Of a DNA stretch of 64,000 bases, positions 45,355 to 60,029 are shown one piece after another; the stretch's first letter is position 1; every line of letters starts with the position of its first letter. The notes under the pieces were generated by a model. It was not told where the DNA came from and made no database searches. It saw only the letters and a program-made list of their open reading frames with translations. Both the position numbers and the translations under genes were made by a program. The stretch comes from Solirubrobacterales bacterium (lineage in GTDB: Bacteria > Actinomycetota > Thermoleophilia > Solirubrobacterales > 70-9): assembly GCA_035940865.1 (NCBI GenBank), contig DASZEL010000002.1, forward strand, positions 75,592-139,591, read 5' to 3'.

Positions 45355-46769
45355 GCAGCGCGATCGTCGTCGGCTCCGGCCCCAACGGGCTCTCCTGCGC
45401 CGCGATCCTGGCCAAGCGCGGGGTGGAGGTGACGGTTATCGAGGCCGAGACCCGGATCGGCGGCGGCACCCGCAGCTCGGAGCTGACCGTTCCCGGGCTG
45501 CTGCACGACGAGTGCAGCGCCACCCACCCGATGGCGGTCACCGCGCCGGCGGCCGTCGAGCTCGAACTCGAGCGCTACGGGCTCTCCTGGGCCTGGCCCG
45601 AGGTCGACCTCGCCCACCCGCTCCCCGGTGGGAGCGGCAATTCCGGTGCCTCCTTCCTGCGCTCGATCGAGGCCACTGCGGCGGGGCTGGGAGAGGCGGG
45701 GGAGCGCTGGCGGCGGATCTTCGGCTCGCCCGCCAAGTCCTACGAGCCCCTGACCGCCGACATCTACCACCCGCTGCCGCACGTCCCGCGCCACCCGCTG
45801 CGCCTGGCGCGCTTCGGCCTGCCATCGGCGGCACCGGCGACGTTGCTGGCGCGGGCGCTGGGGAGTGAGGAGGCGGCGGCCCTCTGGGGCGGCATCGCCG
45901 CCCACTCCTACGCCGAGCTGCACTGGCCGCTCAGCTCGGCGATCGGGATGGCGCTGCTCTGCTCCGGCCACACCTACGGCTGGCCGGTTGCCAAGGGCGG
46001 CTCGGCGTCGATCGCGAGCGCCTACGCCGGCGTGATCGAAGAGCGCGGCGGCCGGATCGAAACCGGGCGGCGGGTCCGCTCGCTCGACGAGCTGCCGCCG
46101 GCCGACGCGGTCGTCCTCGACCTCTCACCCCGGCTCGTCCTCGATCTCGCAGGTGACCGCCTGCCGCCGCGCGTCGCCCGCGCCTACCGGCGCTTCAAGC
46201 ACGGCCCCGGCGCCTTCAAGCTCGACCTCGCCGTCGAGGGCGGCGTGCCCTGGAGCTACGAGCCCGCCCGCCGCGCCGGCACCGTCCACGTCGCCGGCTC
46301 CTTCGCCAGACTCGCCTTCGCCGAGCGGGAGATCAACCGCGGGCGGATGCCGGAGAAGCCGTTTGTCCTCGTCGCCCAGCAGTACCTCGCCGACCCCCAG
46401 CGCTCGCGGGGCGACCTGCACCCGGTCTGGGCCTACGCCCACGTCCCCAACGGCTACGGCGGCGACGCCACCGAGGCGATCCTCGACCAGATCCAGCGCT
46501 TCGCCCCCGGCTTCCGCGACCGCATCGTCGCCACCTCGACCCGTACCCCGGCCGAGGTCGAGGCCGCCGACGCCAACTTCATCGGCGGCGACATCCTCGG
46601 CGGCGCCAACACCCCGGTCCAGCTCTTCGCCCGCCCCCGCGCCACCCTGGTCCCGTACTGGACCGGCATCTCCGGCGTCTTCATCTGCTCGGCCTCGACG
46701 CCCCCCGGCGCCGGCGCCCACGGCATCTGCGGCTTCAACGCCGCCGAAGCGGTTCTGAAGACGCTCTAG
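45351..46769 (+). CDS. Phytoene-desaturase-family NAD(P)/FAD-dependent oxidoreductase
   Basis: ATGA-coupled to the upstream membrane protein. N-terminal IVVGSGPNGLSCAAILAKRGVEVTVIEA..IGGG dinucleotide fold and a C-terminal SASTPPGAGAHG motif typical of CrtI-like enzymes. Confidence 0.75.
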   Translation: MSSAIVVGSGPNGLSCAAILAKRGVEVTVIEAETRIGGGTRSSELTVPGLLHDECSATHPMAVTAPAAVELELERYGLSWAWPEVDLAHPLPGGSGNSGASFLRSIEATAAGLGEAGERWRRIFGSPAKSYEPLTADIYHPLPHVPRHPLRLARFGLPSAAPATLLARALGSEEAAALWGGIAAHSYAELHWPLSSAIGMALLCSGHTYGWPVAKGGSASIASAYAGVIEERGGRIETGRRVRSLDELPPADAVVLDLSPRLVLDLAGDRLPPRVARAYRRFKHGPGAFKLDLAVEGGVPWSYEPARRAGTVHVAGSFARLAFAEREINRGRMPEKPFVLVAQQYLADPQRSRGDLHPVWAYAHVPNGYGGDATEAILDQIQRFAPGFRDRIVATSTRTPAEVEAADANFIGGDILGGANTPVQLFARPRATLVPYWTGISGVFICSASTPPGAGAHGICGFNAAEAVLKTL

Positions 46770-48031
46770 TCCCCGGCTTCGATCGGCCGCGGCGGGGGAA
46801 CGGGGGTCGGGTCGGGGACCGTGGTTTCCAGCCTGCGCACGCTGGGCACCGCGATCACGGCCAGCAGGCAGAGCGTCATCGTCACGGCTCCCAGCCAGAG
46901 GGTGGTGCTGATCCCGAGCCCGGCGGCGACCGGGCCGATGAGGGCGAGGCCGATCGGCTGCAGGGCCAGGGAGCCGAACCAGTCGTAGGCGGTCACGCGG
47001 GAGAGCGCCTCCTGGGGGACATGCTGGGCGATGGTCGTCTCGTAGAGGACCTCGGCGAGGCTGACGGTGCTGCCGGCGAGGAGGGCGCCGAGCGCGATCA
47101 CCACGGTGGTGGAGGGGATCGCGAGCAGGACGATCGGCAGCGAGAAGATGAGGATGAAGCTCTCGCTGACGAGCAGCGGTCGGCGCGGGCGGATCCAGAA
47201 GGCGACGAGGCCGCCGAGCAGGCCGCCGACGCCCCAGAGGGCCGCGATCAGGGCCCAGGAGCTGGAGCCGTCGAGGGAGTCACGGGCGACGGTCGGGCCG
47301 AGGACCTGGAAGGCGGGAAAGAAGATTGCGTTGGTGGTCGCCGCCGAGAAGACCACCGCGACGAGCCAGCTGCGGCTCGAGAACTCGTGCCAGCCGTGGC
47401 GCAGCTCGGCGACGAAAGATTCGCCTTTTCCCTCGAGGCGCACCCCCGGCGCCCGCACCCCCCAGATGCAGGCGGCGCTGACGGCAAAGGTGGCGGCGTC
47501 GACGGCGAGCGCCGAGCCCGGTGAGCCGAGCGCCAGCAGCACCCCTGCCAGCGCCGGGCCCGCCACCTTCCCCATCCAGCGCGAGAAGGTGAGCATCGCG
47601 TTTGCCTCCTGCAGGCGGGAGGCGGGGACGATCTGCGGGACGATCGCGTTCGAGGCGGGGTTGAAGAAGGCGGTCGCGGCGCCGTCGACGGCGTAGAGGA
47701 GCGCCAGCTGCCAGATCTCCGCCGTCCCGGTCAGCAGCAGCACGGCGATAAGGCCCATCGAGACCGTCTGCGTTACGTCAGCGCCGAGCATCGCCCGCCG
47801 CGGCGAGATCCGATCGGCGATGACGCCGCCGACCAGCACCAGCGTGACCAGCACGAGGCCGTTGGCGGCGAGGACGATCCCCAGGTCGGTCGCCGAGCCG
47901 GTCAGGTCGAGGATCGCGAAGGCGAGGGCGATCGGCGAGATCCCGTCGCCGATCAGCGAGGCCGTACGCCCGAGGAAGAGCCGCCGGTAGGACGGTTCCC
48001 TGAGCACTTGGAATTTCCCTGCGGCGGTCAT
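46766..48031 (-). CDS. MFS transporter
   Basis: I chose the ATG at 48031. The N-terminal YRRLFLGRTASLIGDG is typical of the enterobactin-exporter-like MFS subfamily. Multiple TM segments. Confidence 0.8.
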   Translation of the reverse strand: MTAAGKFQVLREPSYRRLFLGRTASLIGDGISPIALAFAILDLTGSATDLGIVLAANGLVLVTLVLVGGVIADRISPRRAMLGADVTQTVSMGLIAVLLLTGTAEIWQLALLYAVDGAATAFFNPASNAIVPQIVPASRLQEANAMLTFSRWMGKVAGPALAGVLLALGSPGSALAVDAATFAVSAACIWGVRAPGVRLEGKGESFVAELRHGWHEFSSRSWLVAVVFSAATTNAIFFPAFQVLGPTVARDSLDGSSSWALIAALWGVGGLLGGLVAFWIRPRRPLLVSESFILIFSLPIVLLAIPSTTVVIALGALLAGSTVSLAEVLYETTIAQHVPQEALSRVTAYDWFGSLALQPIGLALIGPVAAGLGISTTLWLGAVTMTLCLLAVIAVPSVRRLETTVPDPTPVPPPRPIEAGD

Positions 48032-48086
48032 CCGGGCAGGATAAGAGGGGTTAAAGAAGCTCTGGGGTGGGGTAGCCGCCCACGGA

Positions 48087-49220
48087 ATGGGAACGTCGTC
48101 CAAAAGCGTCGGGGACGCGCGCCGGGCTGAGGGCGAAGGCCGACCCGAGCACAAGTTCGGCGCCACGGCGCCGCTGACGATGGGGGTCGAGGAGGAGCTG
48201 CTGCTGGTCGACGAGGGCTGCGGCCTGGTCGCCACCGGCGAGGAGGTGCTGGAGAAGATCGACTCCGAGCACGGCGACAGCGTCTCGACCGAGATCTTCG
48301 CCACCCAGATCGAGCTGAAGACCGGCATCTGCCACGACGCCGGCCAGGCCGCCCGCGAGCTGGCGGAGGTGCGGCGCGCGGTCGTCGCGACCGGGGTGCG
48401 GCTGATGGGCTCCGGCGTCTACCCGGGTGATGCCGGCGAGCCGCAGCTGGTCGAGAAGGCCCGCTACGAGACGGTGAAGAAAGACCTGGCGGGCCTGCTG
48501 GCGACGCCGCCCTGCGGGCTCCACGTCCACATCGGCATGCCCGATCCCGAAACCGCCGTCGCCGTTGCCAACGCGATGCGGCGGCACCTGCCGCTGCTGG
48601 CGGCGCTGACCGCCAACTCGCCCTTCCGCGAAGGCGCCGATACCGGCCTCGCCAGCGCCCGCGCCGCCGCCGTGCGCAGCTACCCGCGCTTCGAGCTCCC
48701 GCGCGCCTTCCGCGACTACGAAGACTTCCTCCGCGTCGCCGACCAGCTGATCGCCGCCGCCGGCGTCGACGACTACACCTACATCTGGTGGGACGTGCGC
48801 CCGCACCCGAACCTCGGCACCGTCGAGGTGCGGGGGATGGACATCCAGGCCGCGCCCGAGGCCAACGCTGCGATAGGGGCGCTGATCCAAGCCTTGGCGG
48901 CGAAGGAGATCGACCGCCCCGACGCTCCCAGCCTCGCCCGCGAGGCGATCGAGGAGTCCTACTTCCAGGCCGAGCGCTACGGCCTCGAGGCGCGCCTGAT
49001 GGTCGACGAGAGCTCCGCCGCTCCCGCCGCTGAGGTCGCCCGCGGCATCCTCAAAGAAGTCCGCTCCTACGCCGAGGAGCTCGGCGGCGCCGGCGCCCTC
49101 GAAGAGATCGAGCGGATCGTCAGCGAGGGTAACGGCGCCGACCACCAGCGCCGCGTCCACGAGCAGTGCGGGATGGATGGCCTGCTCAGCGATCTCGCCG
49201 AGCGGACGCGTGTGAGCTAG
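48087..49220 (+). CDS. Carboxylate-amine ligase, YbdK/GCS2 family
   Basis: TMGVEEELLLVD, EIFATQIELKT, GLHVHIGMPD and WWDVRPHPNLGTVEVRGMD are hallmark GCS2 blocks. Confidence 0.85.
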   Translation: MGTSSKSVGDARRAEGEGRPEHKFGATAPLTMGVEEELLLVDEGCGLVATGEEVLEKIDSEHGDSVSTEIFATQIELKTGICHDAGQAARELAEVRRAVVATGVRLMGSGVYPGDAGEPQLVEKARYETVKKDLAGLLATPPCGLHVHIGMPDPETAVAVANAMRRHLPLLAALTANSPFREGADTGLASARAAAVRSYPRFELPRAFRDYEDFLRVADQLIAAAGVDDYTYIWWDVRPHPNLGTVEVRGMDIQAAPEANAAIGALIQALAAKEIDRPDAPSLAREAIEESYFQAERYGLEARLMVDESSAAPAAEVARGILKEVRSYAEELGGAGALEEIERIVSEGNGADHQRRVHEQCGMDGLLSDLAERTRVS

Positions 49221-49558
49221 TTCGGAGCCGGCAGCTTCAGCCGTTTGCGCGCCGCCACTACGGCGGCGACGGAGGAACGGCAGGCTTTGGCGATCTCCCC
49301 GTTGCCGTGGCCGGGGCGGCGGCGGACCTCGAACTCGACGAGGGCGGCGCGGCGGAGCTTGGCGCGGTCCTCGAGCGAGCCGCTGGGGGCGGCGGCGAGG
49401 GCGGCTTGGGCGGCGCGCTCACGCCGGCAGAGCAGGCAGAAGGTGCCCTCTCCCGAGGTGGTCCAGCTTGCGGGCAGTTCGACCTTCTCGCCGCCGACGC
49501 GGCTGACGGTCACCCCGCACTGGTCGCAGGTCCATTTTTTCGCAGTAGAGACGCTCAT
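49217..49558 (-). CDS. Small zinc-ribbon protein (113 aa)
   Basis: ATG at 49558. WTCDQCG...FCLLCRR forms CxxC...CxxC. It is only the 3' part of a 253-aa track ORF. Confidence 0.45.
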   Translation of the reverse strand: MSVSTAKKWTCDQCGVTVSRVGGEKVELPASWTTSGEGTFCLLCRRERAAQAALAAAPSGSLEDRAKLRRAALVEFEVRRRPGHGNGEIAKACRSSVAAVVAARKRLKLPAPN

Positions 49559-49678
49559 AGGAGTTGGGCCGGCGAGAGAGCCCGCCGAACCCGTGTATCC
49601 ACGGTAGCAAAGCGGCCTATTCGGCCTGCTAAATCGCGGTTTTTGCGGTCCGTGAGCCGTCCCTCCTACACTTGATAT

Positions 49679-50050
49679 ATGTCCACCGAGGGAGCCCCGG
49701 AGCCGACCTACACGCTCTACCGCCGCGGCCTCGAGCTGCTCGAGGACGGCGACTTCGAGCACGCGACCGCGCCGCTCGCCGAGGCCGCCCGGCGCGCCCC
49801 CGAGAAGACTTCGATTCGAGAGGCGTTGGGCCGCGCCTACTTTCGCTCCGGCCGCTTCGCCCCGGCCGCAATCGAGTTCGAGGCGGTGGTCGAGTCCCAC
49901 CCGGTCAACGACTTCGCTCACTTCTGCCTCGGTCGGGCGCTCAGCAAGACCGGCCAAAAGCGCCGCGCCCGCCACCACCTCGCGCTCGCTTCGAACCTGC
50001 GACCCGACCGCCGCGACTATCGCTACTACCGCCGCCTGCTCGACGCCTAA
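49679..50050 (+). CDS. Tetratricopeptide-repeat protein
   Basis: TPR-like helices (YRRGLELLEDGDFEHATAPLAEAARRAP; ALGRAYFRSGRFAPAAIEFEAVV; HFCLGRALSKTGQ). Confidence 0.6.
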   Translation: MSTEGAPEPTYTLYRRGLELLEDGDFEHATAPLAEAARRAPEKTSIREALGRAYFRSGRFAPAAIEFEAVVESHPVNDFAHFCLGRALSKTGQKRRARHHLALASNLRPDRRDYRYYRRLLDA

Positions 50051-50103
50051 GCCGGGCTAGGGAGGCGGGGCAGGCCTAGCCGCCCCGCCGGTTGGTTCGG
50101 GCG

Positions 50104-50814
50104 TCAGCTGAGGAGCGGGATGACGCAGCGGAATCTCCTGGTGTTACTTGCAGGCGATGAGTTGATAGCTGCAGACGCCGACACGGTCGTCACCGCGTAA
50201 ACATTCGACCCGCTGACGACGGGTATATCTCCGGTCCACTCGTCTCCTGCCGCCAGCGTGATGCCCGGCTGCTGCGAAAAGGCAGCGAGCAGCAGCGGAC
50301 TTGGAAGCTCGCCGCCTTCATTGGCGCACGTCGCAGCGGCCGCTGCCGGGTTGAGGGCGCTGGAGTTTGCCGCGATCTGCCAGCAGGCCCCCGCAAAGAG
50401 TCGCGTCCCCGGTTTGCAGCCGACGTGGTAGCCGTTGACGGTCTGCGCGTTCACCGCGTTGGCGGCATTGAGCGCCGTTTCCGCGTCTTTGGCGGACTCA
50501 GCCGTCTCGGCGTGGAAGGCCGAGGGCACCTGGCCGAGGGTGGAGACGTCGACCTGCAGCCCCGTCACCGATCCAGGAGCCAGCCGGTCGCCCTGGATCG
50601 AGCCCGGAGCCAGCTGCACGTTCGGGATCGTCCCTGGCTTCAGCCGGTTCGCCGGCACCGAGTGCGGCGCCAACCGGTTACCCGGCAGCGACTTCACCTT
50701 GATCGCGTGCCCGTTGATCTTCGCGGCCGCGTACACCGTCCCCGCCAGCGCCGCCACCAGCGCCACCGCCGCAACCACCAGCGCCGGCGCCTGCCGCCAA
50801 ATAACCCTGCTCAT
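50104..50814 (-). CDS. Membrane-anchored hypothetical protein with short L-x-PGS repeats
   Basis: AAGGAGA SD, an N-terminal TM segment, repeated motifs (NRLAPHSVPANRLKPGTIPNVQLAPGSIQGDRLAPGSVTG) and a Cys-containing C-terminal domain. Confidence 0.55.
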   Translation of the reverse strand: MSRVIWRQAPALVVAAVALVAALAGTVYAAAKINGHAIKVKSLPGNRLAPHSVPANRLKPGTIPNVQLAPGSIQGDRLAPGSVTGLQVDVSTLGQVPSAFHAETAESAKDAETALNAANAVNAQTVNGYHVGCKPGTRLFAGACWQIAANSSALNPAAAAATCANEGGELPSPLLLAAFSQQPGITLAAGDEWTGDIPVVSGSNVYAVTTVSASAAINSSPASNTRRFRCVIPLLS

Positions 50815-50959: not shown

Positions 50960-51733
50960 ATGGAGAGGGATCCGGCGCGCATCACCTACGACGCCTTCGC
51001 GCCGATCTACAACGAGTTCAACCACCTCAACGACTACGAGATGTGGCTGGGCGAAGTACTGCTGCCCGAGCTCGAGAAGCACGGGTTGAAGCGGGGGAGG
51101 GCGCTCGACGTGGGCTGCGGCACCGGCCGCGCCTTTCAGCCGCTGTTGCGGCGCGGCTGGGAGGTGCGAGCCTGCGATCTCTCGCCAGGGATGCTGGAGC
51201 GGGCGCGGGAGGAGGGCGGTGAGCAGGTGCAGCTCGACGTCGTCGACATGCGCGAGCTGCCGACCTACGGCGAGTTCGAGCTTGTCCTCTCGCTCAACGA
51301 CGCCGTCAACTACCTGCTCAGCGAGGACGACCTCGAGCGAGCTCTGGCTCGGATGTGCGCCAACCTGGTCGCTGACGGCCTCCTCCTCTTCGACGTCAAT
51401 TCCAAAGGGACCTACGACTCGGGCTCTTGGTCGGGGGGCAGCCACGTCGTCGAACACGACGGCCGCAGCTGGACCTGGCATGGTCTCGGCGAAGTAGAGG
51501 GCGAACCGTCGGTCTTCGAAACCCGGATCGAGGGCGACGACATCGAGACGATCGTCCACCGCGAGCGCTTCCGCCCAGAGGCTGAGGTGCGAGCGGCGAT
51601 GAACGCTGCCGGCCTCGATTGCCTCGCCGTGCTCGGCATGCAGGAGATCGACGACAAGGTCGTTCTCTCCGACCCGGCGGACGAAGCCCGGGACTACAAG
51701 GTCGTCTACATCGGCGCCAAAGCCGACCGGTAG
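50960..51733 (+). CDS. Class I SAM-dependent methyltransferase
   Basis: Motif I ALDVGCGTGRA, an acidic post-I residue (ACDLSPGML), and a motif II-like region. Confidence 0.8.
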   Translation: MERDPARITYDAFAPIYNEFNHLNDYEMWLGEVLLPELEKHGLKRGRALDVGCGTGRAFQPLLRRGWEVRACDLSPGMLERAREEGGEQVQLDVVDMRELPTYGEFELVLSLNDAVNYLLSEDDLERALARMCANLVADGLLLFDVNSKGTYDSGSWSGGSHVVEHDGRSWTWHGLGEVEGEPSVFETRIEGDDIETIVHRERFRPEAEVRAAMNAAGLDCLAVLGMQEIDDKVVLSDPADEARDYKVVYIGAKADR

Positions 51734-51742
51734 TAGCGGCGC

Positions 51743-52936
51743 CTACTTGGCCCTGGAGGCCGAGGGCGAACGGAACGAAGCGAGCCCGACGGTCGTGGGG
51801 ATCAGAGCCTCGAACGCTCCCTGATTTCGCTGCAGCGATTCCGCCTCGAGCAGGGAGAGCCAACTGAGGATCTCGTCGAGGCGGCTTGAGACCTTGCTCC
51901 AAGCGGCGCGGTCGAGGGTCAGCGGGATCCAGCTCAGGTGACGATCGGGGTCGGCATCGAAGGTGCCGGCATGGATCGCCTCGGTCACCCGGGCCAGGTA
52001 GGAACCGAGGATCGAGTTGGAGAACTCGCTGCGCAGCAAGGGGGGCAGATCGGCCCAGGCCGCGGTGTCGAAATGGGCGCGCTGGGTGTTGCGGTAGACG
52101 AGTTCGACGCCGCCGCCATGCCGGCCCCCCGGGCGCTCTTCGATCACCTCGATGTAGCCCCACTCGGCGAGCTGACGGAAGCAGCGGGAGATGTGAGAGG
52201 GCGAGCCACCGACCTCCTCGATGAACTGGGAGGGGCTGAGCGGCCGGGCGTTCAGCTCCATCAGGATCCGGGACCGCCAGCGGTTGCGCATCGCCTTGGC
52301 CATCTCGATGCTGATCAGTTGGCGGGACGACGAGCGCCGTGGCTTCTTCGTATTCGAGCGCCGCCGTGGCGCGGTCAGCATCACGTCGGCCGGCTGGGGC
52401 GAGCGGAAGGCTGCGAGCCCGACCGTGGTCGGTATCTGCTCTTGCTCGGAGCCTGCCCGCTGCTCGACCGCCGCGGCCTCGAGAGTGGGCAGCCAGGAGA
52501 GGATTCGGTCGAGCTCGGCGCCAAGCTCGCGCCAGGCCTCCTGGTCAAGTACGGCTCCGTCCCAAGAAAGATGGCGATCTACCTCCTGGTCAAAGGTCCC
52601 AGCACTTATTGCCTCGGTGACGCGATGGAAGTAAGAGCCGAGGATGGAGTTGGAGACGACGTCGCGTTGGAAACGCGGCAGTCCTTCCCAGGTTGTGGTG
52701 TCGAAATGAGCGCGCTGAATCACCCGGTAGACGTGTTCGATCGAGGCTCCTCGCCGCCGCCCCGGACGTTCCTCGATCACTTCGAGGTAGTTCCAGGTCG
52801 CCAGCTGGCGAAAGCACCGGGAGATGTGCGTCAGGTCACCCCCTACCTGGTTGACGAACTGAGATGGGCTCATCGGACGCCCACTCAACTCCATCAAAAT
52901 TCGCGACCGCCAGGGGTCGGTAAGAGCCCCTGCCAT
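51743..52936 (-). CDS. Internally duplicated winged-helix (ArsR-like) transcription regulator: two tandem ~190-aa modules in one polypeptide
   Basis: I chose the ATG at 52936. Both halves start W/RSRILMEL..RP.SPSQF...VGG...HISRCFRQLA.W.Y.EVIEERPG and continue collinearly to IPTTVGLA.FRSP. Confidence 0.7.
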   Translation of the reverse strand: MAGALTDPWRSRILMELSGRPMSPSQFVNQVGGDLTHISRCFRQLATWNYLEVIEERPGRRRGASIEHVYRVIQRAHFDTTTWEGLPRFQRDVVSNSILGSYFHRVTEAISAGTFDQEVDRHLSWDGAVLDQEAWRELGAELDRILSWLPTLEAAAVEQRAGSEQEQIPTTVGLAAFRSPQPADVMLTAPRRRSNTKKPRRSSSRQLISIEMAKAMRNRWRSRILMELNARPLSPSQFIEEVGGSPSHISRCFRQLAEWGYIEVIEERPGGRHGGGVELVYRNTQRAHFDTAAWADLPPLLRSEFSNSILGSYLARVTEAIHAGTFDADPDRHLSWIPLTLDRAAWSKVSSRLDEILSWLSLLEAESLQRNQGAFEALIPTTVGLASFRSPSASRAK

Positions 52937-53156
52937 ACGAGGTCCTATCCATAAACCAACTGAGTGGTCGCTTACCGCAGGAAGCACTTCTTTCTCCCTT
53001 TAAGAACCCAAGAGCGTTTGAAAACACTAGTCCATTTTCGGAACTAGAGGTTTTTCACCCAAACTGGTGTCTCCGCTCTTGCAATTAGTGCCCTGAACTG
53101 CCAGCGATAAAGGAACCTTCATATATACGTTGATCTTGCGAAGGGGGGTGAGCAGG

Positions 53157-53216
53157 ATGAGGTTCGACGCGACTGAGGCAACGCTGCCCGCTGTCAGCAC
53201 TTCGAAGGGCGGCTGA
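53157..53216 (+). CDS. Candidate 19-aa precursor peptide MRFDATEATLPAVSTSKGG (C-terminal Gly-Gly)
   Basis: The ATG is preceded by GAAGGGGGGTGAGCAGG. It lies 71 nt upstream of, and co-oriented with, the E1-like gene and is followed by GC hairpins. Alternative in-frame starts TTG 53130/53136 and GTG 53148 would extend the N-terminus. Too short for codon statistics. Confidence 0.4.
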   Translation: MRFDATEATLPAVSTSKGG

Positions 53217-53219
53217 AAT

Positions 53220-53256
53220 AGACGGCGGCCCCTTGCCGTCTAGGTGAGGGGCCGCC
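53220..53256 (+). terminator. Two overlapping, mutually exclusive GC hairpins (possible partial terminator/attenuator)
   Basis: AGACGGC (53220-53226)/GCCGTCT (53235-53241), versus GGCGGCCCC (53224-53232)/GGGGCCGCC (53248-53256). The second is followed by TTAGTTCTTC. Confidence 0.4.
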
Positions 53257-53287
53257 TTAGTTCTTCAAAAATACTCGGAGTAACACT

Positions 53288-54385
53288 ATGCAATTGCACC
53301 CGCGCCTCAAGAGGACTATCGAACAGGTGGAAACTCCCGAGGGTCACCTGATTCTGATGCGTCCGAGTGCAAACGACATCCGCATCGAACAACCGGACGA
53401 TGGGGAACGCAAGCTTCTCGCCGCTTTGGACGGAACAAGGTCACGGGAGGATCTGCACGAGCAGTTTGGGGTGGAGGTGGTTGAAACGGTGATCGAGCAG
53501 ATGCAGGCGTTGGACCTGCTCGAGGACGCAAGCGACGACGTCCGGGTCCCGTTGAGAGAACGGGAGCGGTTTGACCGCCAGTTGCGCTACTTCAGCGATC
53601 TCAGCCACCACGACGGACCAACGCCCTCCGAATGTCAGGCGCGCCTGCGAGCCGCCCGCGTGGCGGTCCTGGGAGTCGGCGGCCTCGGCGGGCGCACTGC
53701 CTGGGAGCTTGCCTGCTGTGGAGTTGGGGAGCTGCTGCTGATCGATGGGGACCGAGTCGAGGAGAGCAACCTCAACCGCCAGATCCAGTACACGGAGGCG
53801 GACATCGGGCGGCTGAAGGTGGAGGCGATGGCCGCGCGGCTCCGTGCCTTCAACACGAACATAGATGTACACACGGTTCCACGACGGATCGAGAGTCAAG
53901 CCGAGCTGAAAGATGTGATCGCCGGTGCAGATCTGGTCGTCGACGCCGCCGACTGGCCGGCTTACGAGATCGAGCACTGGTGTAACGCGGCATGCTTCGA
54001 AGTTGGAGTGCCCTTCATCGCGATGAGTCATTACCCGCCTGTCGCCCGAGCCGGGCCGCTGTACGTGCCCGGGAAGACGGGCTGTTTCGAGTGTCAGACG
54101 ATCGCCTACCGGCGCGAATACCCCCTCTTTGACGTCGCCGTCGAGCAGCGACGGGCCAAGCCTTCACCGGCGGCGACCTTGGGACCGGCCTGTGGTTTAG
54201 TGGGAGGACTGGTTGGTGCCGAAGTCATGCACTTCCTCACCGAACTGCTTCCGCCGGCAATGTTGGGAGTCGGGTACCTCTATGACCTGAGGACAATGGC
54301 GGTCGAACGGTACGAAGTAGTGCCTGAGCCGGGGTGCCGTGTTTGTGCTCACCTACAAGAAGAAATCACTTCTCCGGTTAGCTAG
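53288..54385 (+). CDS. E1-like ThiF/MoeB/MccB-family adenylyltransferase with an N-terminal RRE-like (PqqD-like winged-helix) domain
   Basis: Residues ~15-80 (GHLILMRPSANDIRIEQP..ERKLLAALDGTRSREDLHEQF..VIEQMQALDLLED) have a beta-beta-helix RRE pattern. They are followed by RFDRQLRYF, the G-loop VAVLGVGGLGG, LIDGDRVEESNLNRQ, VVDAADW, and two CxxC pairs (CFEC, CRVC). Confidence 0.75.
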   Translation: MQLHPRLKRTIEQVETPEGHLILMRPSANDIRIEQPDDGERKLLAALDGTRSREDLHEQFGVEVVETVIEQMQALDLLEDASDDVRVPLRERERFDRQLRYFSDLSHHDGPTPSECQARLRAARVAVLGVGGLGGRTAWELACCGVGELLLIDGDRVEESNLNRQIQYTEADIGRLKVEAMAARLRAFNTNIDVHTVPRRIESQAELKDVIAGADLVVDAADWPAYEIEHWCNAACFEVGVPFIAMSHYPPVARAGPLYVPGKTGCFECQTIAYRREYPLFDVAVEQRRAKPSPAATLGPACGLVGGLVGAEVMHFLTELLPPAMLGVGYLYDLRTMAVERYEVVPEPGCRVCAHLQEEITSPVS

Positions 54386-54514: not shown

Positions 54515-54985
54515 ATGGATGCTGTCGAAGCAGAGGACGGTCGCCTCTCGGCCGGCTTGGCGGCGACGCTCGAACCGAGCCTGCACCACGCCCTCGACCA
54601 TCCTTTTCGGCGCGAGGTACTGCGAATCCTCAATCGCGGCCCACATCCGCACAGCATCAGCGAGCTGCAAGCGGAGCTCCCGCCTTTCCAGCGCGGCCAA
54701 CTCAGCTACCACCTGCGGATTCTGCGGGAGGCGGGCCTTGTCGCCGCCGAGAGCAATGGCTCCGATCCCGCTGGGGATCACGCTCGCTATGCATCCGCGC
54801 TCGCCGACGACGGCAGGATCCGGGCCGTCCTTCGAGCGACCGAGCGCTGGGATCGCCAGCGGCGGGAAGCAATGGGATCCGGGCGGGCCACCACGCTGCT
54901 GACGATGTTTCGGACGCCCCGTCCCGTCCGCACGATCCGCCTCCGCGGGAGTGGGAAGAAGGACGGAGGCCGGGCGGACGAATAG
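54515..54985 (+). CDS. ArsR-like winged-helix transcription regulator
   Basis: SD GCAGGAGGG. HPFRREVLRILNRGPHPHSISELQAEL...LSYHLRILREAGLV is an ArsR/SmtB-type HTH. Confidence 0.65.
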   Translation: MDAVEAEDGRLSAGLAATLEPSLHHALDHPFRREVLRILNRGPHPHSISELQAELPPFQRGQLSYHLRILREAGLVAAESNGSDPAGDHARYASALADDGRIRAVLRATERWDRQRREAMGSGRATTLLTMFRTPRPVRTIRLRGSGKKDGGRADE

Positions 54986-55519: not shown

Positions 55520-55695
55520 CGTACATATCGGTCGGTGGTCAAGGGAAGTCCGGTGCAAGTCCGGCGTGGTCCCGCCACTGTGACCGGGTGGAGGAGTTCG
55601 CGGGCGCCCTCGGCGCCAGCCACTGGAGGCGACACAGAGCCCCCGGGAAGGCGCGTCCTCCCTGATCCCGGAAGCCAGGAGACCTGTCCCCGGCC
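55520..55695 (+). promoter_or_regulatory. Cobalamin (adenosylcobalamin/B12) riboswitch
   Basis: Conserved core read directly from the sequence: GGTGGTCAAGGGAAGTCCGGTGCAAGTCCGGCGTGGTCCCGCCACTGTGACCGGG ... GCCACTGG ... GGGAAGGCG ... and the B12 box GAAGCCAGGAGACCTGTCC (55671-55689). It lies about 40 nt upstream of the 55730 ATG. The boundaries are approximate. Confidence 0.85.
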
Positions 55696-55729
55696 CAGCC
55701 AATTCAACCCTCGAGGAAAGGGTGGCGTA

Positions 55730-56485
55730 ATGCCAAGAATCACCCCGTTCCGGCTGGCGGCTTTCTGCGCGCTGGCTCTCACTCTGACCCTGGCTCTCGC
55801 CGCAGGCGCTTCGGCCAAGGGCTTCAAGGCCGAGCTGCGCGTGGTCGGCGCCGGCAGCAAGGTCCTGGTCGAAAAGCCGATCGCGACGGCGACCACCACG
55901 GTTAAGACCAGTCCCAAGGCCGAATGCTTCGGCAAGGGTTCCGGCGGCAGTGGCGACCCGGTGACGATCAAGGGCAACACCGCGATGGGCGTGCTCGCCC
56001 GCGCCTCCAAAGCAGTCGCTTCGCTGCGGCCGCTGCTGATCAGCGACAGCTTCGACTTCGGGCTGGCGCTGTGCGGGATCGGGAAGAGCATCGCCAAGGG
56101 CAGCTCGTCCTGGTACCTGAAGGTCAACCATAAGTCGCTGCCGGTCAGCGGCGACGCGGCGGTCATCCACCCGGGCGACGAAGTGCTCTGGACGCTGGCG
56201 AAGACCGAAGCGCCCGCCTACAAGTACCCGACCGAGCTGGTGCTGTCGGCTCCCGCCAACGTCAAGCCCGGGGTGCCGTTCACGGTGCGCGTCTTCTCCT
56301 ACGACGAAAAGGGGAAGGGCACGCCCGCGGCCGACGTCAAGGTGACCGGGGCCACGATCGCCACCGGCCCTGACGGTCGCACCAAGGTGACGCTGAGGAA
56401 GCCGGCGCGGCTGATCGCGCGGGCGGACGCTCAGATCCCCTCGGCCCGCGAGCCGGTCTGCGTGGGGGGCAAGTGCCCGAAGTAA
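55730..56485 (+). CDS. Secreted DUF4430-like protein (putative cobalamin-binding accessory) + Ig-like domain
   Basis: ATG at 55730 follows GAAAGGGTGG. A signal peptide is followed by the DUF4430-like pattern (SSWYLKVNHKSLPVSGDAAVIHPGDEVLW) and then a beta-sandwich region (PFTVRVFSYDEKG). Confidence 0.6.
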   Translation: MPRITPFRLAAFCALALTLTLALAAGASAKGFKAELRVVGAGSKVLVEKPIATATTTVKTSPKAECFGKGSGGSGDPVTIKGNTAMGVLARASKAVASLRPLLISDSFDFGLALCGIGKSIAKGSSSWYLKVNHKSLPVSGDAAVIHPGDEVLWTLAKTEAPAYKYPTELVLSAPANVKPGVPFTVRVFSYDEKGKGTPAADVKVTGATIATGPDGRTKVTLRKPARLIARADAQIPSAREPVCVGGKCPK

Positions 56486-56510
56486 CGGGACGCCGAGCCG
56501 GCTCCGTCAG

Positions 56511-57419
56511 ATGACCGGACGCCGCAGCATGGCGGTCGCGATCGCGCTGCTCCTAGCGGCGCTCGCGGCCGCCGGCTGCGGTCTCGGCCCCGGCGCGGAC
56601 GTCGGCTCGGTGGGGCTGAGGGTGACGCGCGAATTCGGCGCGGTACCGGCGCTGCAGCGCTCGCTCGAGGCGAAGGAATCCGACACCGTGATGCGGGTGC
56701 TGGAAGCGAGCGCCGAGGTCGAGACCCGCTTCGGCGGTGGCTTTGTCCACTCGATCGACGGTGTCGCCGAGGGAGAACGCGGTGGCGACCCCTACGACTG
56801 GTTCTTCTTCGTCGACGGGGTCGAGTCGCCGGTCGGGGCGGCGGAGGTCGATCTGAAAAGTGACGAGCGCATCTGGTGGGACTACCGCGACTGGTCGGCG
56901 GCCAACCACGTCCCCGCGGTCGTCGGTTCGTGGCCGGCGCCTTTCGTGGACGGGGTGGCTGGGAAGCGCTATCCGGTGGTGCTCGAATGCGACGCCGGTG
57001 GCAGCGCCTGCGCGACGGCTCGGCAGGCGTTGGAGAGAGAAGGCGTGAAGCCGTCTTCTGGCTCCCCCAAGGGAGCGATCCGAATGCTCGTCGGTCCCTG
57101 GGATCGTCTGCGGCAGGACCCGACCGCGCAGCTGCTCGAAGCAGGCCCCGGCGAAAGCGGCGTCTATGCGAAGTTCGAAGCCTCCGAGCTTGTGGCCCTC
57201 GACGAGGATGGTGCTCCAGGCAGGCGCTTCGGATCGGACGTGGGCCTGGTTGCGGCCACCAGCCGCTACGGCGGGCCGCCGGTCTGGCTGGTCACCGGCG
57301 AGACGGCTGCGGGGGTGCGCGCCGCCGCCGACGCCCTCGACGAGGAGCACCTGCGCGACCATTACGCGGTGGCGATCGAGAACGGACAGGAGACGGCGCT
57401 GCCGGAACCGGGGCGATGA
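56511..57419 (+). CDS. DUF4430-like lipoprotein (putative cobalamin-binding accessory)
   Basis: Lipobox AAAGC. GGFVHSIDGVAEGERGGDPYDWFFFVDGVESPVGAAEVDLKSDERIWWDY fits the DUF4430 signature. Confidence 0.6.
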   Translation: MTGRRSMAVAIALLLAALAAAGCGLGPGADVGSVGLRVTREFGAVPALQRSLEAKESDTVMRVLEASAEVETRFGGGFVHSIDGVAEGERGGDPYDWFFFVDGVESPVGAAEVDLKSDERIWWDYRDWSAANHVPAVVGSWPAPFVDGVAGKRYPVVLECDAGGSACATARQALEREGVKPSSGSPKGAIRMLVGPWDRLRQDPTAQLLEAGPGESGVYAKFEASELVALDEDGAPGRRFGSDVGLVAATSRYGGPPVWLVTGETAAGVRAAADALDEEHLRDHYAVAIENGQETALPEPGR

Positions 57420-58369
57420 GGTCGCCCTTCGCTTACAAGCCGAGGCGCGGGCCGCTGCAAGACGCTCCGCCCGGGGCCGCGGTCGCCTATCTCGGTGCGA
57501 TCGTCGTCGTCGCCTTCCTCTACTTCAACCCGCTGATCCTGCTGGCCGCCGGCGCGGCAGCGACCCTGGCCGGGATCCTCGCCGGCGCCCGCACCGCCGT
57601 CCGCTCAGCCCTGAAGATGGGGCTCTCGCTGGCGCTGCTGATCGCTGTGGTGAACGCTTTCGTCACCAGCCGCGGCGAGACCGTGGTGGCGCGACTCGGC
57701 CACTGGCCGCTGCTGGGGCGGGTCGACGTCACCCTCGAGGCGATCATCGCCGGCGTCTCCTATGGACTCATCGCCGCCGCAACGATCGTCGCCTTCGCCG
57801 TCTACTCGGCCTGCGTCGACCCCGACCGCGTCCTGCGCGCGCTGCGGCCGATCGCGGGGCGCTCGGCGTTGACGGCGACGCTGGTCTCGCGCCTGGTCCC
57901 GGTCGCCGCCGCCGATGCCGCCCGCCTTCGCGACGCGGCTGCTCTCCGCGGCCCCGGCGCGGCACCTGTCGGCAAGGCTCCTCTGGCCCGCCGCCTGCTC
58001 GCCGGCTCCCTCGACCGCGCCGTCGACGTCGCCGCCACCCTCGAGCTACGCGGCTACAGCCTCGAAGGCCCGCGAGTCCGTACCCGCCGCACCTCGTCCC
58101 GCTACGACCGCCGCTTCTACGCCACCGCCGCCCTCGTCCTCGTCACCGCGATCGCCGGCAAGCTCCTCGGCGCCGATGACTTCCAGGCCTACCCGACCGT
58201 CTCCATCGGCCTCAACTTCGCCACGATCGCCGTGGCCGCGATCGTCACCCTCAGCGGCCTCGTCCCCTTTCGCCGCCCGGTGAGGCGCCGCGCCCCAGAT
58301 GCCGACGGGATGAAAGTACCCCCATATGGAGGGAAATCGTCCCGTCAGCAGGGGGTGGCGGGTGTCTGA
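57416..58369 (+). CDS. ecfT: ECF transporter T component (EcfT/CbiQ family)
   Basis: ATGA-coupled. Five or six TM segments and the paired Arg-Gly coupling helices (AAALRGPG; LELRGY). Confidence 0.75.
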   Translation: MRSPFAYKPRRGPLQDAPPGAAVAYLGAIVVVAFLYFNPLILLAAGAAATLAGILAGARTAVRSALKMGLSLALLIAVVNAFVTSRGETVVARLGHWPLLGRVDVTLEAIIAGVSYGLIAAATIVAFAVYSACVDPDRVLRALRPIAGRSALTATLVSRLVPVAAADAARLRDAAALRGPGAAPVGKAPLARRLLAGSLDRAVDVAATLELRGYSLEGPRVRTRRTSSRYDRRFYATAALVLVTAIAGKLLGADDFQAYPTVSIGLNFATIAVAAIVTLSGLVPFRRPVRRRAPDADGMKVPPYGGKSSRQQGVAGV

Positions 58370-60029
58370 GCTGGCGATCAGGCGGGGGGTGGCGCCGGCG
58401 CTTGCGGTCGAGAGTCTCAGCTACTCCTATCCGCAAGCCGCGGAGCGGGCGCTCGTGGACGTGTCGCTCAAGGTCGCCCCTGGGGAGTTCGTGCTCCTCG
58501 CCGGACGTTCTGCCTCGGGCAAGTCGACCCTGCTCAAAGCCGCCTGCGGGCTGGTGCCGCATTTCCATGGCGGGGAGATCGAGGGGGAGGTCCGCGTTGC
58601 CGAGCTCGACGCGGTTGAGGCAGGGCCAGGCGAGCTCGCCGCTGCTGTCGGCTATCTCGCCCAGGACCCGGAGACGCAGGTCGTCTCGACCACCGTCGCC
58701 GCCGAGATCGAGCTGCCGCTGGAGATGCGCGGCGACCAACCGAGCGACCGCGCCCGCGCGGTCGAGGAGGTGGCGCTGGCGCTGGCGATCCCGCACCTGC
58801 TCGATCGCGCCGTCGACACCCTCTCCGGCGGCGAGCTGCAGCGCGTGGCCCTCGCTGCCGCCCTCGTCACCCGCCCGCGCCTGATCCTCCTTGACGAGCC
58901 GACCTCACAGCTCGACCCGGTTGCCGGCGACGAGCTGATCTGGCTGCTGCGGCGCCTGAACGAGGAGTGGGGAGTGGCGGTGCTGCTGGCCGAACATCGG
59001 CTGGAGCGGTGCCTCGCTGCGGCGGACCGGGTTGTGGCGATGGAGGCGGCGACGGTCGCTTTCGACGGCGCGCCGGCCGATTTCTTGTTGTGGTCCAGTG
59101 AGAGCGACGCCGCGCTCTCGACTCCCGCGGCCAAGCTCTTCTCCCTCGCCGGGTTGACGCCCCTGCCTGTGGGTGTCCGCGACGCGAAACAGATGCTTCG
59201 CGGGATGGGGGTCGCGCACCCTCCTGCTTGCAATGTGGGGAGGGTGCGCGACCTCCATTCCGGCGAGCCTGTGCTGGAGGCGAAGAACCTCTGGGTCGAG
59301 CTGGATCGGGGCGAGGAGCTGCGGGACGTGTTGCGCGGGATCGACCTCGAGGTGCGCCCCGGCGAACGGATCGCGCTGATGGGCCGCAACGGTGCCGGCA
59401 AGTCGACGCTGCTGCGCACGGCTGCGGGATTGCACGAGCCCGTCGCCGGCAAGCTCGAAGTCGGCTCGATCGCGCTCCTCACCCAGAACCCGAGCGACTA
59501 CCTGGTCCGCGAGCGCGTCGGCGACGAGCTGCCGGGCGCCGAGGGCATGGCAGCACTGCGGGTGGTCGGTCTAGAGCACGCTGTCGAGGCCGACCCGCGC
59601 GACCTCTCGGGCGGTGAGCGGCAGCGCCTGGCGCTGGCGATCGCGCTGGCGGGGCGGATGGAGGGCGAGCAGCTCCCAGCGGTCGTTGCCCTCGACGAGC
59701 CGACCCGCGGCATGGACCGTGCTCGCAAGGACGAGTTGGTCGCGTTGATCCGGAGCCTGGCCGGTGATGTCGACTTTGTTACCGATGAGGTAACTAAGTC
59801 GACACGTAGGGCCGCGGTCGTCGTCGCCACTCATGACGTCGAGTTCGCCTCCGCGTTCGCCGAGCGGGTGGTGCTGCTCGGCGAAGGGGTGGTGATCGCC
59901 GACGGGCCGATGGAGGAGATCCTCTCCGGCGGCTGGTACTTCGCTACCGAGGTCGCGCGGGTGCTCGACTTGCCGGGAGTGGTGACGCCGGAGCAGGGGG
60001 CGGCGGTGCTGGAGGACGGGCTCGGATGA
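58362..60029 (+). CDS. ecfA: Fused ECF transporter ATPase (EcfA-EcfA' tandem ABC domains)
   Basis: Two complete ABC cassettes: GRSASGKST/LSGGELQR/ILLDEP and GRNGAGKST/LSGGERQR/VALDEP. I prefer the GTG at 58362 (an 8-nt overlap with ecfT). The track ATG at 58326 is an alternative. Confidence 0.85.
   Translation: MSELAIRRGVAPALAVESLSYSYPQAAERALVDVSLKVAPGEFVLLAGRSASGKSTLLKAACGLVPHFHGGEIEGEVRVAELDAVEAGPGELAAAVGYLAQDPETQVVSTTVAAEIELPLEMRGDQPSDRARAVEEVALALAIPHLLDRAVDTLSGGELQRVALAAALVTRPRLILLDEPTSQLDPVAGDELIWLLRRLNEEWGVAVLLAEHRLERCLAAADRVVAMEAATVAFDGAPADFLLWSSESDAALSTPAAKLFSLAGLTPLPVGVRDAKQMLRGMGVAHPPACNVGRVRDLHSGEPVLEAKNLWVELDRGEELRDVLRGIDLEVRPGERIALMGRNGAGKSTLLRTAAGLHEPVAGKLEVGSIALLTQNPSDYLVRERVGDELPGAEGMAALRVVGLEHAVEADPRDLSGGERQRLALAIALAGRMEGEQLPAVVALDEPTRGMDRARKDELVALIRSLAGDVDFVTDEVTKSTRRAAVVVATHDVEFASAFAERVVLLGEGVVIADGPMEEILSGGWYFATEVARVLDLPGVVTPEQGAAVLEDGLG

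Follow-up and report, generated by a model that had tools for sequence, protein, structure and literature searches.

A short peptide gene beside an MccB-like adenylyltransferase gene: probable core of a small RiPP-like gene cluster in Solirubrobacterales

Genes at the locus

We analyzed a 64,000-nucleotide stretch of DNA from a Solirubrobacterales bacterium (here called the window), in which a gene for a 19-residue peptide lies just ahead of the gene for a ThiF-family adenylyltransferase, an E1-like enzyme that we refer to as E1. An earlier note on this DNA had singled out the two genes as a candidate orphan peptide-activation system. We conclude that the locus is probably the core of a small gene cluster of the kind that makes peptides synthesized by ribosomes and modified after translation (RiPPs), with the 19-mer as the substrate of an MccB-like enzyme that would adenylate its C-terminus, the activated end then being captured within the same molecule. 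The features at the center of the locus, the precursor gene and its enzyme, are the following, with RRE standing for RiPP recognition element and ORF for open reading frame.

53141..53151, plus strand: Shine-Dalgarno (SD) sequence AAGGGGGGTGA, 5 nt ahead of the precursor ATG and kept among relatives
53157..53216, plus strand: precursor peptide gene, 19 codons and a stop, MRFDATEATLPAVSTSKGG (ATG 53157, TGA 53216), assigned from a hidden Markov model (HMM) match (E 5.9e-9), coding-frame selection and position frequencies
53224..53266, plus strand: hairpin (53224-53256) with a G+C-rich stem of 14 bp and a T-rich tail behind it, a terminator-like site between the precursor and E1 genes
53288..54385, plus strand: E1 ORF, 365 aa, ThiF-family adenylyltransferase
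53288..53572, plus strand: modeled N-terminal peptide-clamp or RRE-like domain of E1, residues 1-95 approximately (AlphaFold 2, Foldseek, phmmer)
53576..54385, plus strand: adenylation domain of ThiF/MoeB type, nearest to MccB, its ATP site intact and its zinc site of the Cys4 kind (Pfam, MccB match)

The precursor peptide gene

The earlier note had reported an SD-led ORF of 19 codons, co-oriented with E1 and 71 nt upstream of it. We find this ORF at 53157..53216, with its stop codon exactly 71 nt from the E1 ATG; the start of 53130 given earlier merely includes the SD region. Relatives of the locus, given here by locus numbers, were fetched by E1 similarity and comprise nine genome loci and many metagenome loci, the metagenome scan using a 7-sequence alignment. 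SD-led ORFs of 18-21 codons recur beside E1 homologues in many independent loci. A recognizable precursor is present in 36 of the 63 E1-bearing loci, so the conserved upstream small ORF on which the earlier note had staked its proposal does exist. Altogether, 44 distinct peptides were collected from 35 loci, and further ones occur in L095-L097. The SD sequence ahead of them is conserved as A.GGGGGTGA in an alignment of ten loci and as GGAGGTGA in distant loci. Precursor genes were uncalled in every public gene table retrieved, and no NCBIfam model matches the peptides.

The precursor genes of ten close loci carry the signature of purifying selection on the coding frame. Codon differences in this frame number 248 synonymous to 283 non-synonymous, compared to 73:443 and 49:470 in the other frames. 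By codon position, 393 changes fall on the third, 184 on the first and 156 on the second, a pattern that is also visible in the DNA alignment. The number and placement of the genes vary among loci. Arrays of two copies (L001, L003), three copies (L051, L096) and five copies (L008) were found, some copies lie on the opposite strand (L014, L074, L096), and others are 1-1.5 kb from E1 with different genes intervening (L004, L029, L030, L043). Separate strands, distances and arrays of this sort fit a trans-acting substrate and not a cis leader peptide. On these comparisons of sequence, the mini-ORF is a genuine conserved precursor-like gene, and they speak against a chance ORF or a cis-acting leader.

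This bears on one rival explanation, according to which the mini-ORF is a cis-acting leader or attenuator, or arose by chance, and E1 is an adenylyltransferase with a housekeeping role, for instance one of the sulfur-carrier (ThiS/MoaD) type. In favor of this, the ORF is short, a strong terminator-like hairpin comes after it just ahead of the E1 gene, and E1 has generic matches to ThiF and MoeB models. Against this stand the conservation of the peptide at the amino acid level with synonymous drift, and the arrays of up to five copies, some on the opposite strand and some next to a methyltransferase gene instead of E1. The evidence from the enzyme, given below, makes this explanation highly improbable.

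Some precursor copies appear to be decaying. The second copy in L003 (3849..3902) has ATC in place of ATG, and a copy in L008 (3758..3838) has lost its stop codon and runs on into the next SD sequence. In L081, L085-L088, L093 and L094, whose E1 proteins are 30-34% identical to that of the window, an SD-led short ORF also lies just upstream of E1, and the sequences are unrelated (for example MKLSLQKRSASIAGASARG, MAMNIFSFKASSSSLSDEG, ...RSFPGGG, MRFKKHTTSVAGLALPS, MKIRKVTVAKTFSNPR and MEITITTREVSTASGAWEG). This recurrence suggests that the short ORFs at distant RRE-ThiF loci may be further uncharted precursor families.

Conserved positions in the peptide

Numbered from its C-terminus, the core of the window peptide reads P(-9)-x-x-S(-6)-T(-5)-x-K(-3)-G-G. 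Lys(-3) is found in all 44 peptides and Pro(-9) in 42, numbers that are partly built in because the seed regular expression demanded both residues; a later HMM search returned no variants without Pro(-9) or Lys(-3). Ser(-6) is present in 37 and Thr or Ile at -5 in 34, position -10 is hydrophobic, and the N-terminal half follows an alternating M-K/R/Q-hydrophobic pattern. One sub-clade (L023, L091) keeps Lys(-3) and has the Pro shifted.

The earlier note had expected the peptide to have a conserved C-terminus and had treated a ubiquitin-like Gly-Gly tail as its key feature. The first expectation holds for Lys(-3) and fails for the last two residues, which form 20 different dipeptides among the 44 peptides. 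Gly-Gly accounts for only 11 of these, and the other endings include GN, GR, SR, NR, TR, LR, VR, TG, SG, AG, GA, GL, GS, AS and IS. The Gly-Gly tail is, by this count, a trait of the clade to which the window belongs, not of the peptide family. Arg-ending peptides all belong to one clade. Asn is the last residue in 4/44 peptides and in one more copy in L096. A correlation of the C-terminal residue (Gly or Arg) with residues of the E1 pocket was considered and dropped, since phylogeny would confound it.

No acidic position is conserved, and ten of the 44 peptides contain neither Asp nor Glu. In those ten, the C-terminus is therefore the sole carboxylate that an E1 could adenylate. Cys is present in only two of the 44.

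The adenylyltransferase

The translation of E1 contains LGVGGLGG, IDGDRVEESNLNRQ and VVDAADW, together with the CxxC pairs C266/C269 and C350/C353. Residues 97-351 match the Pfam ThiF family (PF00899, 3.5e-48), in agreement with the earlier description of a 365-aa enzyme with ATP-site motifs and two CxxC pairs. The solved structure nearest by sequence is Escherichia coli MccB (3h5a, 5.6e-37, residues 100-355). A phmmer match to PaaA (2.9e-24) spans residues 27-262, and so covers part of the N-terminal domain. The E1 family is large: thousands of database matches were obtained, of which the best 120 are all of approximately 360 aa, at 64-87% identity. At 50% identity, the number of clusters reaching E<=1e-30 is 371.

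An AlphaFold 2 model of E1, built on 26 family sequences, has a pLDDT of 87.7 and a pTM of 0.86. Four short strands and then three helices make up the modeled first 80 residues (E5-7, E12-15, E21-24, E31-33, H38-46, H53-60, H62-74). When this model was compared with the PDB using Foldseek, MccB chains ranked at the top (E 5e-23, template modeling score (TM) 0.70-0.76), with 354-367 aligned columns against the 365 residues of E1. PaaA followed with 346 columns; MccB and PaaA together span TM values of 0.68-0.77. Alignments with ThiF and MoeB reach only about 268 columns. Because MccB and PaaA align over the full length and ThiF and MoeB do not, the extra N-terminal domain of E1 corresponds to the MccB/PaaA peptide clamp, that is, to an RRE. 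The domain thus models as an RRE-like peptide clamp, as the earlier note had proposed; the Pfam PqqD (RRE) model, which that note had named as a check, is silent, so the assignment is by structure and by the PaaA and MccB alignments.

In a family alignment of 36 E1 sequences reaching down to approximately 40% identity, the G-G-G, D-D, N-L-R-Q, K and D residues of the ATP site are invariant or nearly so. Three of the zinc cysteines are invariant and the fourth is present in at least 90% of the sequences. No other Cys is conserved across this alignment, which makes a thioester relay unlikely. Q165 and K177 of E1 are the equivalents of Q167 and K179 of IndF, and both are conserved; IndF is distant, with 34% identity over 120 aa.

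E1 scores two to four times below the cutoffs of the NCBIfam equivalog models for ThiF, MoeB and UbaA (122 versus 275, for example), so it does not belong to the housekeeping sulfur-carrier E1 enzymes. Neither a rhodanese domain nor a ThiS or MoaD neighbor was found, and the extra N-terminal domain, a peptide clamp in the model, is a further point against the leader and housekeeping explanation introduced above.

Public databases name the E1 homologues "TOMM precursor leader peptide-binding protein" or "molybdopterin-synthase adenylyltransferase", TOMM being a thiazole/oxazole-modified microcin. The first name implies a non-catalytic docking protein of a TOMM or linear azole-containing peptide (LAP) pathway, and the NCBIfam model TIGR03882 (cyclo_dehyd_2) does match E1 residues 248-360 at 45.1 bits, above its cutoff of 36.9; this match is confined to the C-terminal portion of the ThiF fold. 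Docking E1-like proteins are non-catalytic (PMC12596934), whereas the ATP-binding residues of E1 are conserved. In addition, the Pfam-annotated neighborhoods contain no YcaO or dehydrogenase, no such gene family is shared among loci, and peptides of 18-21 aa with Cys in 2/44 are too short to comprise a leader and an azole core. We consider the docking explanation almost certainly wrong, and we continue to treat E1 as a probably catalytic, MccB-like enzyme.

The methyltransferase

50960..51733, plus strand: class-I S-adenosylmethionine (SAM)-dependent methyltransferase, conserved alongside E1 and the peptide gene and similar to amine N-methyltransferases

The pair is not the orphan, minimal system that the earlier note had described, since this methyltransferase and the ArsR-like winged helix-turn-helix (wHTH) regulators discussed below are conserved partners. 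The earlier statement that no tailoring gene lies nearby is likewise wrong on account of the methyltransferase. The methyltransferase is linked to the peptide and E1 genes in three gene orders. In L003-L007, L010 and L012, methyltransferases 42-49% identical to that of the window directly follow E1, with overlapping stop and start codons. In a distant clade the order is methyltransferase, peptide, E1, and the methyltransferase stop codon usually lies within the SD sequence of the peptide gene (GGAGGTGA). In the window, L095 and L096, the methyltransferase gene is beside a regulator gene; the L095 copy is 91% identical and fully syntenic, and the L096 copy is 75% identical, on the minus strand and behind its own extra peptide copy.

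The best NCBIfam match of the methyltransferase is the daptide-type RiPP methyltransferase model NF041820 (4.5e-16), which is nearly full length and, at 59 bits, well under the cutoff of 175. Among its PDB relatives are TylM1 and DesVI, which are amine N,N-dimethyltransferases, and a glycine-sarcosine N-methyltransferase.

Seven representative database proteins of 625-681 aa (P0124, P0127, P0128, P0138, P0147, P0159, P0170) look like fusions of the methyltransferase with RRE-ThiF. We rejected these as "Rosetta-stone" evidence, because no real fused ORF was present in any of 80 metagenome loci, and relied on synteny instead. In the related loci that were fetched (L017, L033, L035, L037, L040, L041, L046), the methyltransferase gene ends at a TGA within the SD sequence of the peptide gene, and the genes are separate. 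The low-complexity linker of the fusion-like proteins resembles an other-frame translation of an SD sequence and precursor gene, so the annotated fusions may hide unannotated precursor genes.

The likeness to amine methyltransferases is among the points in favor of a second rival explanation, intermolecular ligation or peptide tagging. Here the activated C-terminus would be passed to a small-molecule amine, later N-methylated by the methyltransferase, or to a protein lysine, which is close to the "mini-ubiquitin" idea of the earlier note. The E1 family activates C-terminal carboxylates (PMC12596934), engineered MccB is reported to achieve C-terminal ligation (PMC11118369), the methyltransferase is similar to enzymes for the dimethylation of primary amines (the daptide methyltransferase and TylM1/DesVI), and the peptides of the window clade end in Gly-Gly. 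Several results argue the other way. The Gly-Gly tail is not conserved, given 20 C-terminal dipeptides that include x-Arg; no E2, JAB or deconjugating peptidase occurs in the Pfam-annotated neighborhoods, and no E2- or JAB-like family is shared among loci; E1 has no conserved Cys outside the zinc site and hence probably no thioester relay; and the similarity to Cap2 and BilD detected by PADLOC is that of generic Rossmann regions only. A role within the peptide accounts better for the invariant Lys(-3). We think tagging unlikely and retain intramolecular capture as the favored outcome of activation.

The hairpin and the intergenic control region

The hairpin 3' of the precursor gene has a minimum free energy of -35.7 kcal/mol (z -4.6 relative to shuffled sequences). 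A hairpin after the last peptide copy has z < -2 in 24 of 37 cases, with a median z of -3.0, and the hairpin sequences are mutually unrelated. The element looks like an intrinsic terminator, an attenuator or a transcript stabilizer. In the mcc operon, a comparable terminator or hairpin lies between the precursor and enzyme genes.

The hairpin is thus one of the likenesses that a third rival explanation can call upon, in which E1 makes a C-terminal nucleotide conjugate similar to microcin C and the methyltransferase modifies the nucleotide, as in the McC variants of Bacillus and Yersinia, in which MccB has a methyltransferase-type domain. MccB is the closest characterized enzyme, an MccB with a carboxymethyl-transferase domain provides precedent (PMC12596934), and peptides ending in Asn exist (4/44, and the copy in L096). 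The phosphoramidate mechanism, however, requires a C-terminal Asn (PMC12596934), which is absent from 40 of the 44 peptides. No MccC/D/E/F-like or MccS-like genes occur in the annotated or shared neighborhoods, and the methyltransferase is a generic Methyltransf_11/25 protein with a weak CmoM match as its only tRNA-related one and no CmoA/CmoB-type carboxy-SAM or carboxymethyl-transfer similarity. A peptidyl-nucleotide product is very unlikely on this evidence.

Upstream of the precursor gene, a divergent intergenic region separates it from a regulator gene.

52988..53140, no strand: divergent intergenic control region, with a GC content of approximately 0.50 compared to about 0.66 around it and blocks kept in the ten-locus alignment
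53051..53069, no strand: conserved block TTTTTCACCCAAACTGGTG, with the ten-locus form TTTTC.C.CAAA.TGG (alignment)
53100..53119, no strand: conserved block GCCAGCGATAAAGGAACCTT, with the ten-locus form GCCAGCGATAAAG.AACCTTG (alignment)

The two blocks are candidate operator or promoter elements. A scan of the intergenic control region for sigma-70 consensus promoters found none, and Rfam at permissive thresholds gave no match between 52700 and 54700.

Presumed regulators and other neighboring genes

51743..52987, minus strand: tandem-duplicated ArsR-like wHTH protein, 414 aa, two units each consisting of a wHTH and an alpha/beta C-domain (internal repeat), divergent from the precursor gene
54515..54985, plus strand: second ArsR/HTH_20 protein, 156 aa, downstream of E1 (Pfam HTH_20, 2.6e-10)

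ArsR-like wHTH proteins of one or two units lie beside the peptide, E1 and methyltransferase genes in 39 of 94 loci. The AlphaFold 2 model of the tandem protein of the window (pLDDT 79.7) contains two equivalent units, and the protein is effectively a pseudo-dimer in one chain. Other clades encode the unit alone, in a protein of approximately 200 aa, at times with two of them per locus. A search of the PDB by sequence found no relative of the tandem protein, and Foldseek returned weak matches to PH1932 (1uly), Kfla_6221 and Phr. From its fold class only, it is presumed to be the regulator of the cluster. NCBI's model of the gene (376 aa) seems to begin within the first wHTH, 38 codons too far downstream. 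Homologues of the 156-aa HTH_20 protein occupy the same position in the close clade (L001, L003, L010, L095, L096).

In the distant clade with the order methyltransferase, peptide, E1, the wHTH gene is accompanied by a gene for an extracytoplasmic function (ECF)-type sigma factor, which is present in 26 loci, among them L015, L017, L035, L041, L046, L052, L058, L060, L061, L066, L079, L082 and L091. The two point away from the biosynthetic genes and, at most of these loci, are neighbors on one strand. Such a pairing is a hint of a regulatory circuit and not of an antibiotic cluster.

Clade B (L013, L018-L022, L026, L027, L029-L031, L043) has different neighbors, with genes for an MMPL transporter and a TMEM175-like protein flanking E1 and no methyltransferase gene. 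L013 has a uracil-DNA-glycosylase-like gene immediately upstream of E1; in L029 such a gene separates E1 from the peptide gene. Peptides are kept in five clade-B loci, four of them ending in K-x-Arg and one (L020) in K-N-G. Across the family, no conserved protease, YcaO, E2 or JAB was found in the Pfam-annotated neighborhoods or among gene families shared by loci. PADLOC gave no assignment to a defense system.

Four genes precede the cluster in the window.

46766..48328, minus strand: MFS_3-type transporter
48087..49220: GCS2 carboxylate-amine ligase
49679..50050: TPR protein
50104..50814, minus strand: secreted-looking protein, 236 aa

Synteny of these genes is limited to L095, the closest relative, except that L004 also has the GCS2 gene. 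The genes at 46766..50814 are probably not part of the system. Downstream, the region 55535..60029 encodes proteins of 316 aa and 302 aa, and L096 has a DUF4430 gene in a comparable position. Genes for a membrane protein and for a duplicated ABC ATPase (58326..60029) follow; these look like an unrelated transporter operon of the energy-coupling factor or cobalt type.

Proposed mechanism

The gene layout, the homologies and the conservation described above are results of the sequence analysis; we infer the chemistry of the cluster (adenylation, capture and methylation) from characterized relatives and from the conserved positions of the peptide. The N-terminal half of the peptide (MK-hydrophobic-x..., alternating) would dock as a strand on the RRE domain, and the segment from Pro(-9) onward would thread into the adenylation site, where the enzyme would use ATP to adenylate the C-terminal alpha-carboxylate. 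The acyl-adenylate would then be captured, most likely intramolecularly. We favor the epsilon-amine of Lys(-3) as the nucleophile, yielding a three-residue C-terminal macrolactam, because this residue is in every peptide found and lies in register with the EnfB (-3) and IndF (-4) nucleophiles. Alternatively, the near-invariant Ser(-6) could form a lactone. The SAM methyltransferase may subsequently add one or more methyl groups, probably on an amine. The hairpin after the precursor gene would set the ratio of precursor to enzyme transcript, and the divergent tandem wHTH protein, joined in the distant clade by the ECF sigma factor, may control the locus and possibly sense the product.

The steps differ in how firmly they can be proposed. 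That the peptide and E1 form a RiPP-type precursor/enzyme pair is very likely, and C-terminal activation with intramolecular capture has somewhat better than even prospects. The specific formation of a Lys(-3) lactam is a tentative suggestion that we would expect to fail more often than succeed.

Several observations weigh against this reconstruction. Lys(-3), if it is the nucleophile, would no longer be available as the most obvious target of an enzyme resembling amine methyltransferases, and its invariance, like that of Pro(-9), partly reflects the seed pattern. The methyltransferase is absent from clade-B loci and is therefore accessory. About ten clade-B loci (for example L013, L018, L019, L021, L022, L026 and L031) have E1 and no recognizable peptide within 4 kb. 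Neither an exporter conserved family-wide nor a conserved protease was found among annotated and shared neighbor genes, and the N-terminal domain of E1 does not match the Pfam PqqD model.

More speculatively, the product could carry an undescribed ThiF-type RiPP linkage, either a macrolactam between the N-epsilon of Lys(-3) and the alpha-carboxylate or a lactone through Ser(-6), on a leaderless 19-mer that stays uncleaved, is N-methylated, acts as a signal for the wHTH regulator (in the sister clade, wHTH and ECF sigma factor) and is not an exported antibiotic. We regard this combination as rather unlikely. If it were true, a regulatory circuit based on a RiPP would be widespread among Solirubrobacterales of soil.

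Comparison with known systems

A short peptide together with an RRE-ThiF enzyme is a described kind of RiPP system, represented by MccB, PaaA, GrcB, EnfB and IndF (PMC12250964, PMC12596934, PMC12150305, PMC11256085). The earlier note had not recognized the combination, yet RRE-ThiF enzymes acting on short free peptides that do not end in Asn are published (IndF, EnfB and GrcB; PMC12596934, PMC12150305, PMC12250964). All ThiF-like RiPP enzymes nucleotidylate a carboxylate, which a nucleophile then attacks (PMC12596934). The locus in the window has three of the features that define an RRE-ThiF RiPP, namely an intact ThiF site, a fused N-terminal RRE-like domain and a co-conserved adjacent short precursor gene; the fourth, covalent modification of the peptide by the enzyme at the expense of ATP, is predicted.

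MccB of microcin C7 (E. coli; 3H5A, 3H9G, 6OM4) has the same N-terminal clamp or RRE and a ThiF domain with a zinc tetrad. It is the best match both by sequence (5.6e-37) and by structure, with an identity of only about 24%. As here, the microcin C7 precursor is very short, leaderless and immediately upstream of the enzyme gene, with 7 residues compared to 19. It supplies a C-terminal Asn for succinimide and phosphoramidate formation, whereas the window peptide ends in Gly-Gly. The mccC/D/E/F functions of export, aminopropylation and immunity have no counterpart here, where the partners are a class-I methyltransferase and wHTH proteins.

IndF (Streptococcus pneumoniae) and EnfB (Enterococcus faecium) are RRE-ThiF enzymes of minimal clusters with short precursors. 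In the IndF product the C-terminal carboxylate is bonded to Trp(-4), in that of EnfB to residue -3 (PMC12596934, PMC12150305). This adenylation of the C-terminal carboxylate and attack by a nucleophile 2-3 residues before it have a possible parallel in the invariant Lys(-3) of the family described here. The motifs differ, NWYFI or WWIxI compared to P-x2-S-T-x-K-x2, as do the hosts, Firmicutes compared to Solirubrobacterales, and the IndF and EnfB clusters contain a peptidase and/or transporters and lack the methyltransferase and wHTH partners. PaaA of pantocin A and GrcB of GRC share the RRE-ThiF architecture. They activate Glu side chains (the EEN core for PaaA; Glu35, joined to Cys39, for GrcB), whereas 10/44 peptides here have no acidic residue and an EEN core is lacking, and the PaaB-type oxygenase or radical-SAM partners of the pantocin and GRC systems are absent.

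Other systems are less similar. The methyltransferase is reminiscent of that of the daptides (4.5e-16, 59 bits against a cutoff of 175), but the peptides here never end in Thr, and no enzymes for oxidative decarboxylation or aminotransfer were found among annotated or shared neighbor genes. Unlike TOMM and LAP systems, the locus has no YcaO partner and no Cys/Ser/Thr-rich core behind a long leader. The substrate is a 19-mer with Gly-Gly in 11/44 relatives, not a beta-grasp protein such as the ThiS and MoaD partners of the sulfur-carrier E1 enzymes ThiF and MoeB. CBASS Cap2, Bil and Bub systems differ in that E2 and JAB neighbors are missing here and only the zinc cysteines are conserved.

Our literature search found no paper on this Solirubrobacterales family, its peptide motif or its set of partners, and recent reviews describe most of the ThiF-like RRE enzyme family as unexplored (PMC12596934, PMC12250964). 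The locus defines a large and coherent branch, from uncultured actinobacteria, with a clear substrate motif and dedicated methyltransferase and regulators, and it corrects the systematic public annotation "TOMM precursor leader peptide-binding protein". Its three small genes form a system with which a new C-terminal peptide modification, and possibly a regulatory peptide signal in an abundant soil lineage, could be sought by direct experiment. Each ThiF-like RRE enzyme characterized so far in this small RiPP class carries out a different reaction, forming a phosphoramidate, an indolizidone, a thiolactone, a cyclic imide or an indolylamide, and the cluster described here is an uncharacterized, soil-actinobacterial member of this known class of ThiF-dependent RiPP systems.

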